From: Octopus vulgaris
Lineage: Eukaryota
Assembly (NCBI GenBank): GCA_951406725.2
Contig: OX597817.1
Coordinates: 118,668,001 to 118,732,000, forward strand
Direction of reading: 5' to 3'
Length of the DNA: 64,000 bases
Part shown: piece after piece, positions 9,998 through 50,335 of the stretch
Layout: the number at the start of each line of letters is the position of its first letter
Numbering within the stretch: the stretch's first letter is position 1
The notes under the pieces: generated by a model
Database searches by the model: none
Seen by the model: the letters and a program-made list of their open reading frames with translations, nothing else
Told to the model about the DNA's origin: nothing
Position numbers and translations under genes: made by a program

Positions 9998-10293
9998 TAT
10001 TTAGCGCACATGGCGGAGACGTAAACTGACCCCACCCCACCAAACTTAATTTTTTTTTTTTAACGGAATCGCACGTTTTCGGCTATGGAGATTCCCATTC
10101 TGAAAAAGAATTTTCAAATATCTCAACTTCAAAATTCCATCACACCCGCTCCCCTCCTTGAAATTTTGAAGTTGCGATTTTTGAAAATTCTTTTTCAGAA
10201 CTGGAATCTCCGTAGCCGAAAACGTGGGATTCAGTAAAGAAAAAATTAAGGTGGGGAGGGTTCTATTTACGTCTCCTTCATGTGCGCCAAATA
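9998..10293. mobile_element. About 296-bp near-perfect palindrome (foldback/MITE-like, probably Merlin-related)
   Basis: Left arm TATTTAGCGCACATGGCGGAGACGTAAA...CACGTTTTCGGCTATGGAGATTCC...CTTCAAAATT mirrors right arm AATTTTGAAG...GGAATCTCCGTAGCCGAAAACGTG...TTTACGTCTCCTTCATGTGCGCCAAATA. Confidence 0.85.
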
Positions 10294-10550
10294 CAAAGGG
10301 TAGGAGGATATGACAACGTAGGGAAGATAGGCCATCAAACGTGGGTTGTCGGGTGTTATAACACCACTGTGAAGAAAGGATTTTTACAGCACGTACCTGA
10401 CAGAAGCACAGCAACACTGGAAACTATAATAATAGAAAATGCGTTGCCCGCTACTGTAATTCATACCGGTAAATGGGCAAGTTATAGAAATTTACAGCAA
10501 CTTGGCTATATTCACCGAACGATAAGCCATTCACAGAACTTCGTTGACAC
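10285..10550 (+). pseudogene. Merlin / ISXO2 (IS1595-like) DDE transposase fragment
   Basis: WVVGCYNTTVKKGFLQHVPDRSTATLETIIIENALPATVIHTGKWASYRNLQQLGYIHRTISHSQNFVD matches the ISXO2 pattern WV.G...V.DR...TL..II...PG..I.TD.W.SY..L...H..VNH..FVD; catalytic TD reads TG. Confidence 0.9.
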
Positions 10551-10551
10551 T

Positions 10552-11036
10552 TGCGGGGGAGGGTGTCACTCAAGAATCACCGGATACCTTAGCCTGGACC
10601 GAAAACCCGAATTGGTCTTCGCAGTCTCCTGCGAAGGTCATATCGGAGGTCAACATGTCCAGGGTGTTGGGCTCCTTTACGAAGGACTTGTTTAGAGTCA
10701 ATTTTTGAGACCCCGACCGGGATCCGGAGCAGTACCTATAGGCAGCTCACAGCCTGGTCGGGGGCGAAGAAGAATAGGCTTAGCGCCGAAACATGTATAT
10801 ATTTGTAATGATTAATATTGTAGTCATTTTACACGAATTGTAAGAGGTTCATTGCCTCATGTAATGTATTGTTAAAAGACAATGTTATAGAGAAGCAGAG
10901 GGTCGTCGGGCGCTTTCTGTCTTCTCTCATCCTTATCCTCCTTGTATTATTATCATTCATTTCATTAATGTCTTGTCCAGCCCGCAAAGCTACCCAATCT
11001 ATGTACTGTCTTCATGACAAATTTAATGAAATAAAG
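10552..11036 (+). mobile_element. 3' part of a Tx1/L1-like retroelement (3' UTR and tail)
   Basis: Last 40 nt (ATCTATGTACTGTCTTCATGACAAATTTAATGAAATAAAG) closely match the tail of the Tx1/L1-like element ending at 13185. Confidence 0.65.
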
Positions 11037-11400
11037 TAGCTTGCTTACCAACCACATGGTTCTGGGTTCAGTCCTACTGCGTGGCACCTTGGGCAAGTGC
11101 TTTCTACTAGCCTCGGGCCGACCAAAGCCTTCTGAGTGGATTTGGTAGACGGAAACTGCAAGAAGCCCGTCGTATATATGTTTATGTATATATTAATGTG
11201 TATATATATATATAAATATATATGTATATATATATGTGTGTGTGTGTGTCTGTCTGTCTGTCTGTCCCCCCAACATCGCTTGACAACCGATGCTGGTGTG
11301 TTTACGTCCCCGTAACTTAGTGTTCCGGCAAAAGTACTAGGCTTACAAAGAATAAGTCCTGGGGTCAATTTGCTCGAAACAATTAAAGGAGTAAAAGAGT
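11037..11400 (+). mobile_element. SINE family A lacking its A-box (interrupted by the upstream LINE tail)
   Basis: TAGCTTGCTTACCAACCACATGGTTCTGGGTTCAGTCC...GGATTTGGTAGACGGAAACTG, internal microsatellite, 3' half. Confidence 0.9.
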
Positions 11401-11899
11401 ATTTGTTTTCATTCATCTCATTTTTGTATATTGTCAAGCCCGCAAATGCTTTTGCGTAAAGCCCTTGAGACTAATTTTATGAAATAAAGAAGCTTGTTTT
11501 TTCTCTGAAAGGAATTTTATCGTTTAATATTGGATTTGTTACTGTTGGACTTGTTATTGTATTTTTGGATTGTTATTATTGTTCAACTTTGTGCTGTTGC
11601 CGGGTGACAGAAATTGTTATTTCCTTTTGTAGCCATTGTGGCAATTTTTAAACAAAATACTGCGAAAAAACTGGACTTGTTAAAGTCATTTTAGACTTAA
11701 ATTTCGTTCACCTTCGGGGGCGGGATTTGAACTATCGTCGAAAAGTTTATAAACTATTTTTGCGAAAAATTATTATAGATTTTCCTTATGGAAAACCGGT
11801 TTTTGTGTTATATTTTCTTCTGTAATTAATTTCGACCGAGTATGTCGGTCGAATTATACATGAAAAATGCACTCCCGAAGAGGGTAAGAAGGATCTTTG

Positions 11900-13185
11900 C
11901 TTTTTATATAATGGCCTTACCTAACCTTCGTTGTTTGAATGTGTGTTGTGTGAGTTCGAAGTGGCAGCAGGCTTGTTTCCTCGACGACCTCAGATCACAC
12001 GATATACATGTGATGGTTGCTACAGAGACCAAGTTGGACAGTCTACAAACCTTCTCGCCTTTTCCGCTTTTTGTGGAAGGGAGGAAAGCCGCTTGTGAAG
12101 CGCTCTATCTGCTGCCAGAAACCGCTAAAGGGTGGGTTACGGATGCCTTGGCTGAAGATGTGAAAACTCTTTACCTGGATGGGGGGCAGGTGTGTTACCG
12201 CACGTCTGGTTCTACCTTCCGTGTTTAACGTCCTTAACGGATATTGGGGCATGGATCAAGCAGAGACTTAGGCTGGGAGACTGGCAATTGGAGTGCCGTC
12301 AGGCACTTCAGCGACTCTCTCGGGCGGGCAATGCCGGCAGCAGGAGTACCACCGCGGATTTTTATAGCGAGTTAGTGGGTTTTATGTCCGAAGACGCCTT
12401 GGAGGAGACCCTGGGCTACGATCAAAATCAGTTGATCAACCTGTTCAGAAGAACGTTCAGGCCGGGGTATCTGGATAATTACCAGAAATCCCTGGCGCGA
12501 CAGTGCTTCCGTGCGGCGTTACCTGTTCGAGACAAATTGTAAAGCACGGGAGTGCCGTCTCGCCGACATGTCCAAGGTGCGGGCATAACAGGGAAACCGT
12601 TTTGCACGCATTTGTGGAGTGTCCGATAGTTTCCACAGAACAACTGTTGTCATTGATGGGAAGAGTACAGCTATCATTTGAGTCTATCATCGTGATTGTG
12701 TCACCTCCCTCCCTTAACAGGAAAAGGAAGGCTTGTTTTTTCTACGTAGTAGCCATACTGAAAGAAACAGTATAGAAGACGCGTGTAAGAGGGATATTGG
12801 CAGATTCTTTCGTCTCCGGCCAGGGGTTCGTAAACTTTTTTAGTTACCACATCATAAGTAAGATCAGGCTGGAGAAGAGGTATCTGTCGCTGAGTAGGTT
12901 TGTAAAAGGATGGAAGCAAGTTGAGAGTGACCAGCACCAAGTAAGTGCGATCAGTGGTAGAAAGTAAAGGTTCCACCCAGATGGCTAGATTCCTTTCCCT
13001 CAGATGCAAATTGTTGCTTTTTGCAACAATATTTATGTAAATAATTTTTTAAATTACATCCGTAATCATATCGTTCATACGAACACTAATTTTTAACTAA
13101 AAGCAACTTCTTCACCCTTTGTGTTTGTCTGTCCTTGTTCGTCCCATCTGTGTACTGCCTTTATGGCAAATTTCATGAATTAAAG
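11900..13185 (+). mobile_element. Internally deleted Tx1/L1-clade non-LTR retrotransposon (APE endonuclease start and C-terminal zf-RVT/CCHC)
   Basis: N-terminal LRCLNV...DIHVMVATETKL (APE motifs); C-terminal ALPVRDKL...CPRCGHNRETVLHAFVECP; RT core absent; 3' tail ends ATTAAAG at 13185. Confidence 0.85.
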
Positions 13186-13550
13186 AAGCTTGCTTCCCAA
13201 CCACGTTTCCGGGTTCAGTCCCACTGCGTGGCACCTTGGGCAGAGTGTCTTCTGCTATAACCCTTGTAAGTAGATTTAGTAGACAGAAAACGGAAGAAGC
13301 AAGTTGTATGTGTGTGTATGTGTGTATGTATGCATGTGTATCTTTCTTTCCCCCCCACGACTGCCAGCTTCGCTTAAATCCAATGTTGTTGTGTTCACTC
13401 CCCGTAAATTTGTGGTTTGACAAAGAAACCGATAGAATAAGTACTAGGCTTAAAAAATAAGTACACGGGTTGATTTTTTTCCACTAAAAATTCAAGACGG
13501 TATCGCAGCATGTCCGCAGTTTCATGGCTCAAAGAAGTCAAAGATAACAG
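13186..13550 (+). mobile_element. SINE family A lacking its A-box
   Basis: AAGCTTGCTTCCCAACCACGTTTCCGGGTTCAGTCCCACTGCGTGGCACCTTGGGC and family A 3' half. Confidence 0.9.
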
Positions 13551-13870
13551 ATAACAAACAAACACACACACCCCACACATTGGCTGTTCATAAGTTACGT
13601 TTAGATACAACTACAATTTCCTGTATAGTACCGCCGATATATGCTATGTGCAGCCAATGAAGCCCTCTTGGATCTGCTGAATTATCCTTCTTTTTCACAT
13701 CTTTTCTTGAAATTTTTCAGTTGCGAATGAAATTCATGGACACCCTATATGTACACACACACACAAACACATATTTACATGCATGAGCGCGTATGTGCGC
13801 ATTTGTGTGTGTGTGTGTATGCCTTCTGGATGGTGAGACGATGATAGGAACATGGTTAAACTGTTTAGAA

Positions 13871-16684: not shown

Positions 16685-18294
16685 GGTATTTCGTCTGTCT
16701 TTATGTTCGGAGCTCAAATTTCTCTACGGTCGACTTTGCCTTTCATTCTTTCGGGGTCGATAAATTAAGTACCAGTTGCGTACTGGGTTCGATCTAATCG
16801 ACTGGTCCCATCCCCCAAAATGTTGGGCCTTGTGCCTAGAGTAGAAAAGAAGGAAAAAAAAGATGCTCTAGTACATTCAGTCGAAAATAAGCGCCAGTCA
16901 CACCTGAAAGATAACCATGCATAAGTACAAGAGTTGCTGTATGGTAAGAAGGCGGCTTCCCCTCTACTTGTTTCCGGGTTCAATCCCACAGCGAACTCAT
17001 TTCACCCTTTTTGGTTAGACTTGTGTCTGCTGACAAAAACGGATTAAGTCGATTATATTGACCCCAGTGCGTAACTGGTACTTAATCTATCGACCCCGAA
17101 AGGATGAAAGGCAATGTCGACCTCGGCGGAATTTGAACTCAGAACGTAACGGCAGACGAAATACCGCTAAACATTTCGCCTGGTGAGCTAACGTTTCTGC
17201 CAGCTCGCCACCGTAATGTACTAGCGCATCGTGAAATGAGATTCGTTGCTGTAGAAGATAACGCGCTGTCCATTTCAAAGAATCGAACCCATGCCCTGAC
17301 GATTCAAACTATTAAACTGTGTAGTTTCATGTAAAACACGAAACACTGTACTAATTAGAAATATAAGTATCTTTAGATTACAATTGATTAATTTTCCTAT
17401 CCGAGCTGAAGGATTACGGAGTATAATTTTATTTTCAACAATTACTTTTTATTTTAATTCGAGTATTATCTGAACGTTCTAAATGTGTCTTTTCTATCTT
17501 GATTAAAATCATCTCTTCTGGATAAAGAGAGACGACTGATTGTCTATTCATTCAGATGTCGATGATATTTTCAAAATGTATAATCATTCCGACATATGTT
17601 GGATTTTCAGCTTCGTACATCAGGTAAATTCGGTTACCGGGGAAAATATCCGTATGATTGTGTGTGTCGCTATGTGAGTGCGTGCGTGTGTGTGTATGTG
17701 TCACTATGTATATGTGTGTGTTGTGTGTGTGTGTGCGTGCACCAAGCGTGTATATATTTGCATGGTACAGTAGCCTAAACCAATGTCATCTACCAAAGCT
17801 TTAGTTTGGCTAAATTTGGTAGACTAAAATTATGTGAGAGTCTGCTACAAATACAATGTGTGTGTGTGTGTGTCTCTGTGTGTGTGTGTGTCTGTGTCTG
17901 TGTGTGTGTGTGCATTTGCATTGGGCAGCACCTTGAACTAATGTTAGCTACTAACGACGGAGGTTGACTAATATTATGTGGCTCGAAATTTGGTTGACTA
18001 AAACTGTACACAAGACCGTCATATATATATACATGTATGTGGGAGAGGGCGGACGGCGACGCAAAACATGTGGCTTAGCGGTTAAAGCGTAGCACTCATT
18101 GTCGTAAAATTGCGATTTCAATTTCTGGTCGGGTGATGTATTGCGTTTTTGAGAGAAACAATTTTTTCACATCAGTCCACATAGCTGACAAAAATGAGGA
18201 CGAATAATCCTGCGACTGGCCAACATCTCATCCCGGGATGTGGTGGGAGGATATATACGAGCACCATCAGCCAATGGCTAAGGGAAGGAGCTTT

Positions 18295-22002: not shown

Positions 22003-22415
22003 ATGAGTGGTTGTGTGGTAAGTAGCTTGCTTACCAACCACATAATTCCGGGTTCAATCCCACTTCATTGCACCTTGGGCAGGTGTCCTCTAATATAGCT
22101 ACGAACCGACCAAAACCTTGTGAGTAGATTTGGTAGACAGAAACTGAAAGAAGGCCGTCATAATATATATATGTGCGCGCGTGCGTGTGTGTGTGTATGT
22201 GTGTGTTTGTGTGTCTGTGTTTGTTCCCGGCTCCCTAACATTGCTTTACACTCCATGCTGATGTGTTTACGTCCGCGTAACCTAGCAGTTCGACAAAAAG
22301 ATACCGATAGAATAAGTACTAGGCTTACAAAGAACAAGTCCAGGGGTCGATTTGCTCGACTAAAAGGCGGTGCTCCTGCATGGCCGCAGTCAAATGACTC
22401 AAACAAGTAAAAGAA
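22003..22415 (+). mobile_element. SINE family A, near full length
   Basis: Intact tRNA-like head GAGTGGTTGTGTGGTAAGTAGCTTGCTTACCAACC...GGGTTCAATCCC, central microsatellite, tail ...AAACAAGTAAAAG. Confidence 0.92.
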
Positions 22416-22664
22416 CAGAATATATAATATATATACATATATAATATATTTACATATATATATATAGAGATTATATATATTTATATATATATATATATAT
22501 ATATACATATATATATACATATATATATATAAGTTCAGCAAAAATTTAGATTCAAAAGAATATGGTACTTTATTTAGATGCACCAGAATTTTGTATGGTG
22601 TTATCCATAAAAATATGTGGGGTGATTATAATCAAAATAAGCAACAAGAATGAATGACTCCGGT

Positions 22665-45674: not shown

Positions 45675-46373
45675 TATAACACTCGTAATAAAGTGGGAAC
45701 TTAACCTTGTGCGTCTATCAAATACGATCATCTATCAAATTTCAAAGACACATATTTGGTGTGGGCGGTGGCTTCTGAGAAGCCTAATGCTGTTGGCTGG
45801 TTGAAAGATTGAGTTGATACAGCTCATTCATAATAATTTTTTCATTTTGTTCGCGAAAACATGGACATGTGTTCATCTAAAAATTTATGTGGGTGTATAT
45901 GCATGTGTAGATATATATATATATATAGATATATATATATATATATATATGCATGAAAATATGTGTATATTCATTTATTCATTTACTTGTTTCAGTCATT
46001 TGACTGTGGCCATGCTGGAGCACCGCCTTTAGTCGAGGAAATCGACCCCAGGACTTATTTTATCAGTCTCTTTTGCCGAACCGCTAAGTTACGGGTACGT
46101 AAACACACCACCATCGGTTGTCAAGCGATGTTGGGGGTAGGGGGGCAAACACAACACACAAACATACACATATATATATACATATATACGACGGGCTTCT
46201 TTCAGTTTCCGTCAGCCAAATCCACTCAGAAGGCTTTGGTCGGCCCGCGGCTAGAGCAGAAGACACTTACCCAAGGTGCCACGCAGTGGGACTGAACCCC
46301 GGAACCATGTAGTTCGTAAGCAAGCTACTTACCATACAGCCACTCCTACGCCATATATATATATGCATAAAAA

Positions 46374-49926: not shown

Positions 49927-50335
49927 AGGCGGCGAGCTGACAGAAACGTTAGCGCGCCGGGCGAAATGCTTAGCGGTATTTCGTCTGTCGTTACGTTGTG
50001 AGTTCAAATTCCGCCGAGGTCGACTTTACCTTTCATCCTTTCGGGGTCGATAAATTAAGTACCAGTTACGCACTGGGGTCGATGTAATCGACTTAATACC
50101 CATGTATGTCCTTGTTTGTCCCCTCTATGTTTAGCCCCTTGTGGGTAATAAAGAAATAGGTATTTCGTCTGTCGTTACGTTCTGAGTTCAAATCCGCCGA
50201 GGTCGACTTGCCTTTCATCCTCTCGAGATCGATAAAGTACCAGTTACGCACTGGGTCGATGTAATTGACTTAATCCGTTTGTCTGTCCTTGATTGTCCCC
50301 TCTGTGTTTAGCTCCATGTGGGTAGTAAAGAAATA
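49927..50335 (+). mobile_element. SINE family B tandem dimer with a long target-site duplication
   Basis: Full head AGGCGGCGAGCTGACAGAAACGTTAGC; second unit restarts at GGTATTTCGTCTG (50159); TATATATTATTTAATTATATA flanks both sides. Confidence 0.93.

Follow-up and report, generated by a model that had tools for sequence, protein, structure and literature searches.

Within 64 kb of the Octopus vulgaris genome, three retrotransposon tails end directly in front of the same base of an abundant retroposon, SINE A, which raises the question of whether LINEs use this SINE as an insertion target or whether a LINE-SINE chimera has spread as a unit. Here, we analyze these junctions in the window (the whole 64-kb stretch of DNA) and across a genome of 2.8 Gb in 227 contigs. 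We consider it highly probable that several families of the L1/Tx1 group were inserted separately at one SINE base, between GTGGTAAG and WAGCTTG, likely by means of an APE endonuclease that reads the site and primes there.

Three LINE tails in a decayed stack

TAAAG followed by WAGCTTG occurs at exactly three sites in the window, all on the forward strand, at 11036/7, 11489/90, and 13185/6. These are the three junctions with (T/A)AGCTTG listed in the original prediction, and no others were found in the window. The junction base was also said to lie directly past the A box of intact SINEs; consistently, the same bases come after GTGGTAAG in the intact copies at 22005 (forward) and 46345 (reverse). 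In the window, WAGCT comes after 0.16% of all positions and after 0.5% of AAG. The features are as follows:

10588 to 11036, forward: element 1, the last 450 bp of an ORF1-only (non-autonomous) family; 83% identity to the complete 2,040-bp copy L284; 5' part and SINE head lost
11037 to 11399, forward: SINE A body of the TAGCTTGCTTACC type, without head and A-like box; aligns with the intact copies at 22020 and 46330
11400 to 11489, forward: element 2, the last 90 bp of the 3' UTR of a second family; 90% identity to L130
11490 to 11496, forward: left 7-bp target-site duplication of element 3, AAGCTTG; identical to 13186-13192
11497 to 13185, forward: element 3, an internally deleted and slightly 5'-truncated LINE; 85% DNA identity to L055 and L060
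13186 to 13551, forward: SINE A body of the AAGCTTGCTTCCC type, without head; its first 7 bp are the right duplication; aligns with intact 22020-22419
22005 to 22419, forward: intact SINE A, reference for the empty site; target junction 22022/22023
46000 to 46352, reverse: intact SINE A, reference for the empty site; target junction 46328/46327; far end approximate

Junctions 1 and 3 continue into SINE bodies without an A box, as had been proposed, and 11034-11377 and 13183-13551 align with the intact copies; in the first body, a B-like box read directly from the sequence lies ~25 nt past the junction. At junction 2, only 7 bases of the SINE follow, and these are the left duplication of element 3, which lengthens to 10 bp when the AAG before it is included. 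Each of the three tails comes from a different family. Homology of element 1 to other copies begins at 10587-10588, and its complete relative L284 has an ORF1 match and no ORF2 match. Homologues of element 2 have LINE 3' UTR upstream, not the end of a SINE. A separate reading of 11037-11489, as a Tx1-tailed SINE A, was rejected because none of the 19 homologues of element 2 comes after a SINE 3' end and none of 193 SINE A ends leads straight into the site (in two, whole heads come next).

Element 3 consists of a 5' UTR to ~11887, the end of ORF1, parts of ORF2, and a 3' UTR that terminates in ATGAATTAAAG without poly(A). Using tblastn with the ORF2 protein of an intact copy (P0001), we matched residues 1-51, the start of the endonuclease, at 11911-12063 (84% identity) and residues 822-1123, including the zf-RVT domain, at 12059-12922; the reverse transcriptase is deleted. 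The APE and zf-RVT remnants described earlier for the element ending at 13185 are therefore present, with domains named after the Pfam domains of the intact relative. Large internal deletions with differing breakpoints are frequent in older copies (L051-L060 and element 3 itself).

Two further features lie nearby. At 9998-10293 is a 296-bp self-complementary, MITE-like element with 80% identity between its arms, and at ~10300-10560 (forward), directly upstream of element 1, is a broken frame that we take to resemble a Merlin/IS1595-type transposase and that may have removed the 5' part of element 1.

The region is thus a decayed stack from three families, one of them ORF1-only. Upstream of this stack, the window retains no SINE head, and for this reason targeting and a chimera cannot be told apart from the window by itself.

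Junctions across the genome and independence of the insertions

A 21-base tail pattern without any SINE sequence had 372 exact matches genome-wide, and the reversed control had none. WAGCT directly follows 283 of the 372 tails (76%), compared with 0.6 expected from the base composition of the window. Random 3' flanks, which the original prediction had named as the outcome that would speak against it, were accordingly not observed. We based this count on all matches because a filtered set (344 of the 372) favours SINE flanks. In the first 30 of the 372, unfiltered, the tail was followed by a SINE body in 26 cases and by a stacked element after the site in two, while one was a fold-back and one was off target. 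For the three window families, we examined the best-scoring matches, which are not random samples. The terminus of the element-3 tail was kept at 25 of 29 other loci and was followed by 23 SINE bodies (one lacking 3 bases), one stacked element, and one sequence off target; the element-2 family was on target in 13 of 19 copies (by eye). The ORF1-only family of element 1 has a relaxed specificity, with 13 of 29 copies on target (45%; by eye). Pooling the tails of all collected loci, which stem from biased searches, gave 146 distinct ones, of which 100 precede a SINE body, 24 precede the start of the site and then other sequence, and 22 precede neither.

The target belongs to a short, highly repeated head with A-like and B-like boxes, identified by eye against the consensus, and the target site lies between the two boxes. 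ARAGORN and Rfam gave no tRNA match for SINE A heads, and a parent tRNA was not found. Octopus SINE families OR1, OR2, and OK were reportedly described by Ohshima and Okada in 1994. The octopus OR2 SINE is named in the available part of PMC4758252. The 23-mer that contains the target has 105,157 exact copies genome-wide; lower-bound counts suggest that ~0.3% of SINE sites are filled, and this fraction would perhaps reach 1% with diverged copies.

Two loci have unusual tails. At L059 (G000:C21 14.23-14.24 Mb), the LINE tail has become a short tandem repeat array that replaces the terminus (L010, L013). L080/L081 (G000:C1 111116871-111116988) is a fold-back that reads head, inverted tail with inverted site, 12-nt spacer, tail, site, and body.

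Full-length copies of 5.45 kb sit between a SINE head and a SINE body. The copy L047 is 5,455 bp long including the left duplication and encodes a 467-aa ORF1 before a 1,133-aa ORF2. By Pfam, the P0001 ORF2 has Exo_endo_phos at 10-226, RVT_1 at 509-754, and zf-RVT at 973-1020; in ORF1, a zf-CCHC zinc knuckle at 228-243 scores 20.7 bits, just below the cut-off of 20.8. The best solved relative of ORF2 is human L1 ORF2p (229 bits, compared with 74 for R2), and among named proteins the nearest is one of Argonauta hians (65% over a part of the query; 60.5% over 656 aa). In the family of L047 (family B), we found 92 exact 5' ends. Among the 72 examined, 59 come after a SINE head, 12 after the tail of another element, and one, L246, was counted as unresolved because it matches the 5' pattern but not the element. 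Similarly, among 65 copies with a tail, 61 continue into a SINE body and four are stacked on another element. Both frames are open in 2 of 55 full-length copies. Thereby, the full-length copies with SINE head and duplication upstream that the original prediction had anticipated were looked for and found. At 15 loci of older autonomous copies chosen by endonuclease similarity alone (75-88%), a head lies upstream at seven and a tail at one, the remainder being broken; the matching tail is kept at six, and all six flanks start with the site, five of them with a SINE body. In addition, the same SINE site is occupied by five or more ORF1-only elements whose 5' UTRs are unrelated. The idea that a Tx1 family targets the SINE is thus supported as regards the SINE site itself, while the single family is replaced by several families, autonomous as well as ORF1-only, and in one of them the specificity is relaxed.

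Contigs of four runs, whose RNA nature is only guessed, cover the element and reveal no start, end, or strand, and they were left out as evidence. In Logan contigs from four DNA or unlabelled runs compared with L047, the unique flank was linked to neither allele (two runs had no coverage of the flank), and any intact SINE could yield the joints that skip the LINE; no filled locus was thus seen with an empty allele. A search of ten loci for a ribozyme at the LINE 5' end gave no Rfam match at the gathering score.

SINE sequence would also lie behind LINE tails if one or a few LINE-SINE chimeras had spread as single units, or if SINE bodies had been carried along by 3' transduction. We therefore compared the LINEs with the bodies that follow them in 54 young copies (those of the 61 aligned copies with a scorable body, over the first 135 nt of the body only). 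The mean pairwise difference was 1.8% for the LINE and 7.9% for the SINE body; between nearest neighbours, these values were 1.1% and 6.3%, in L047/L214 0.28% and 8.2%, and in L257/L259 0.17% and 3.0%. Divergence of the bodies is thus four to six times that of the LINEs, and the shared downstream SINE that the original prediction had named as a refuting outcome was not found. LINE and body did not co-vary significantly (Mantel rho 0.155, p 0.089); however, this is not zero signal, and it counts against separate insertions, as does the enrichment of one SINE subfamily behind family B. Amplification as a unit is also favoured by two loci. At L041, a near full-length copy adjoins one of three clustered tRNA genes, and its upstream SINE body is matched by the downstream one, giving a duplication of at least 170 bp. 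L254-L256 (G000:C9 2.66-2.68 Mb) are three family B copies in tandem, of one clade and with the same joint, possibly reflecting a local duplication rather than three insertions.

The truncated copies point in the opposite direction. Truncated copies were used as a test against hitch-hiking by Kojima 2015 (PMC4494074). Here, eight short, independently truncated copies are located between a head and a body, each flanked by a duplication of its own (6, 6, 7, 10, 11, 11, 12, and 13 bp); further duplications measure 4 bp (L097), 5 bp (L060), 7 bp (L045), and 12 bp (L044), and L034 and L103 have none. In L077, L142, L147, and L260, private variants are present on both sides of the insertion, which argues that the duplication was copied from each target. 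Moreover, the site is common to many families with unrelated 5' UTRs. Altogether, amplification of one or a few chimeras is largely refuted, and we leave it only a very slight probability. The preferred reading, separate insertion, rests on several observations: the 3' junction is fixed, the SINE head stays in place on the left, 5' truncation varies and comes with duplications of 4-13 bp, different families form stacks, and young copies occupy SINE copies that are unrelated to one another.

Target reading and the two LINE ends

Insertions outside SINE A give a view of what is read at the target. Six of 21 off-SINE tails (one microsatellite left out) have a 9-13-bp duplication; all six come after AAG and five of them after TAAG, and AAG is not part of the query. 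Two observations count against the reading of a motif: L280, an off-SINE insertion with a 13-bp duplication, comes after AAA, not AAG, and 15 of the 21 tails have no duplication in the DNA examined. The SINE target site is nearly palindromic, and L269 has inserted on the opposite strand at GGTAAG, the counterpart of the site within the palindrome, leaving an 11-bp duplication. We considered a symmetric cut of constant 7-bp length across the palindrome but dropped it because of the 9-13-bp duplications. From these sites, we infer that the endonuclease probably reads a short motif. Because tail and target both end in AAG, sequence places the nick either at the junction or 3 nt upstream of it and cannot fix it further. 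In the available text of PMC1950540, the Tx1L endonuclease nicks almost only its own target, before AGTT, and L1 cuts TTTT/AA; for this reason, we favour a nick at CTT/A.

A sister LINE family has 62-68% identity in the endonuclease and a hairpin tip that reads NDGS rather than GDGK or GDGR. Among its five loci (L319 and L321, also L320, L322, and L323), two have intact 3' ends, and both of this small number are off the site, in non-SINE DNA. This family is likely the partner of a second SINE, SINE B (window 49928-50333, forward, and 17037-17212, reverse), which has ~30 nt of its 3' tail in common with the LINEs and an end that resembles the sister family. SINE B has 49,130 exact tails; none of the first 100 is at the SINE A site, and ~60 of them (by eye) lead into internal SINE B sequence as tandem units. 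At L049, one SINE B copy lies inside the SINE A site.

The position of the site between the A-like and B-like boxes would also fit ORF proteins that are tethered to Pol III factors on the SINE and whose insertions fall at a set distance from the boxes; position-specific retrotransposons of dictyostelid and yeast tRNA genes are known (PMC5006619, in its available part). However, the junctions are exact to the base, and the same motif is used outside SINEs. Insertions also occur at joints without an A-like box (12 of 72) or far from the B-like box. In a stack on G000:C1 at around 99.59 Mb, a head is followed by a young family B copy (99.4% identity to L047), an ORF1-only element, an older family B copy (92.8%), and a body; with the youngest copy at the left end, the last element to arrive likely inserted at a joint >7 kb away from the B-like box. 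Finally, the flanks inspected did not include a second abundant SINE family as a target. Tethering is therefore a very improbable account of the site.

The choice of SINE subfamily and the 5' ends bear on a role of the RNA. Family B is followed by a CTAAC-type body in 38 of 61 copies, compared with at least 26% genome-wide (27,820 of 105,157), and by an A-type body in none of 61, compared with 13 of the first 100 target matches listed. Endonuclease reading alone may fail to explain this bias. In all 71 resolved 5' ends of family B, TAAC precedes the element proper regardless of the body sequence, and it is likely that the 5' end carries target-like bases that aid joining and rebuilding of the site. 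An extra T at this joint is frequent, occurs in scattered parts of the tree, and is found more often on targets that do not match; CTAAC bodies account for 28 of 35 seamless joints and for 10 of 26 joints with the extra T (p 0.001).

These data could be taken to mean that the target is set mainly by RNA-DNA pairing, with read-through past AATAAA into the SINE body and a target-like 5' end annealing at a loosely specific nick. Besides the bias of family B toward the SINE subfamily whose sequence is copied in its own 5' end and the seamless joints on matching targets, this model is consistent with the absence of poly(A) at every junction despite AATAAA in the tail and with the TA that begins 11 of 15 off-SINE flanks of the ORF1-only family (by eye). 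On the other hand, the off-SINE sites L271, L273, and L123 have only AAG in common, the T before AAG at off-SINE sites is absent from the RNA tail, the sequence downstream of the opposite-strand insertion is unlike the SINE body, and the subfamily bias may instead reflect the age and intactness of targets. We regard pairing as the main determinant as improbable, and continue to favour reading by the endonuclease. A weaker version, in which the target is partly set by the RNA and the LINE clade tracks a moving target through bits of SINE at both of its ends, with successive families matching A-type, then CTTAC, then CTAAC subfamilies through pairing of target-derived RNA ends with the cut DNA, is in our opinion still unlikely, though less so.

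At L048 (3828-3872, oriented on the forward strand), the SINE head is duplicated directly before a full-length copy; this could be due to an RNA begun at the SINE start or to a template switch. RNA starting at the SINE head was not adopted as a general explanation: such a head duplication occurs in 1 of 72 copies, no second body follows the duplicated head, and left joints vary around position 6-8 with variants scattered over the tree.

We propose that the endonuclease would nick the bottom strand at the junction or within 3 nt of it, most likely at CTT/A, similarly to the pyrimidine/A step of L1. The terminal AAG of the RNA would then pair with the primer, which would leave poly(A) uncopied and make the real duplication 3 bp longer than counted. 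The top strand would be cut ~11-13 nt downstream and the ends often trimmed at microhomology. With target-like bases starting full-length 5' ends and AAG ending the tails, each insertion would leave two usable sites, which would explain the stacks. ORF1-only relatives would borrow the enzyme. A SINE that is struck would have its A-like and B-like boxes separated and may thereby lose Pol III activity; this predicted promoter knock-out would touch only ~0.3-1% of SINE copies.

Relation to known target-specific LINEs

An ORF2 with APE, RT, and a C-terminal Cys-rich zinc domain, a separate upstream ORF1, a fixed 3' end, variable 5' truncation, target-site duplications, and the lack of LTRs place these elements in the L1/Tx1 group. 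Within this group, membership of the Tx1 clade is likely. A CCHC zinc knuckle in ORF1 is a feature of this clade, and its families Dewa and Mutsu target tRNA arrays and 5S, respectively. A coral protein automatically named 'Transposon TX1' scored 284 bits compared with 229 for human L1; these values come from different searches and regions, and the name is transferred. Kojima 2015 takes >20% of flanks in one repeat as target preference (PMC4494074), and the values here are 76% overall and 45% in the most relaxed family.

Targets of the Tx1 clade described in the available text of PMC4494074 include Tx1D, U2 genes, microsatellites, Mariner, Harbinger, and LTR elements. The closest parallel is Tx1L of Xenopus laevis, which, as here, is an APE-type LINE at one site of another mobile element, the non-autonomous piggyBac Tx1D (PMC1950540 and PMC4494074, both in part); the hairpin tips are also alike, RDGH in Tx1L and GDGK here. 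Unlike in the accounts of Tx1L given there, the octopus target is an interspersed retroposon with >105,000 exact sites, the site lies inside a predicted Pol III promoter, and several families with ORF1-only relatives share it. Crocodilian Tx1-Mar, SINEU-3, and others similarly prefer another transposon, have tandem insertions around the duplication, and include truncated copies that demonstrate independence; however, the available part of PMC4494074 describes hits to regions of Mariner, Harbinger, LTR, or microsatellite targets, while here one base is hit, copies are young (with divergence as low as 0.17%), and the SINE serves as target rather than being carried along as a passenger. Keno, in U2 snRNA genes, and other Tx1 families of small-RNA genes share the base-exact insertion into a multicopy small-RNA-like sequence, but their targets as described there are host genes and not a selfish repeat. 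Dada also inserts at the A box of tRNA-type Pol III promoters or close to it; however, from what is accessible of PMC8869645, it is a DNA transposon with an unrelated enzyme that enters real tRNA genes with a 6-7-bp duplication. The octopus LINEs have been active recently and probably work like Tx1L, and the SINE landing site would be a new target for LINEs of a known, target-specific kind. A 2026 annotation of O. vulgaris counts 13 recently active L1-Tx1 families with 421 insertions (2.29 Mb, ~5.4 kb each), the same length as the LINEs here, and its available text contains no target analysis (PMC13282606). In the literature searched, we found no report of a LINE aimed at a fixed SINE base; an earlier notice in subscription journals, Repbase, or Dfam is possible.

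For octopus repeat libraries, the nested arrangement means that these LINEs can become fused with SINE halves. Because well under a few percent of copies are struck, the LINEs do not appear to hold the SINE in check. RNA pairing may also have a part in steering the first step; the system is young and offers copies that are intact, off-target sites of natural origin, one insertion on the opposite strand, and a sister family, so that the shares of the APE endonuclease and the RNA ends in target choice are directly testable. If the RNA co-determines the target, this would be an APE-type element that rebuilds its own landing sites inside the promoter of another parasite. Altogether, our findings add a target class for sequence-specific LINEs: a retroposon whose own copying supplies fresh, presumably harmless, and base-exact sites.
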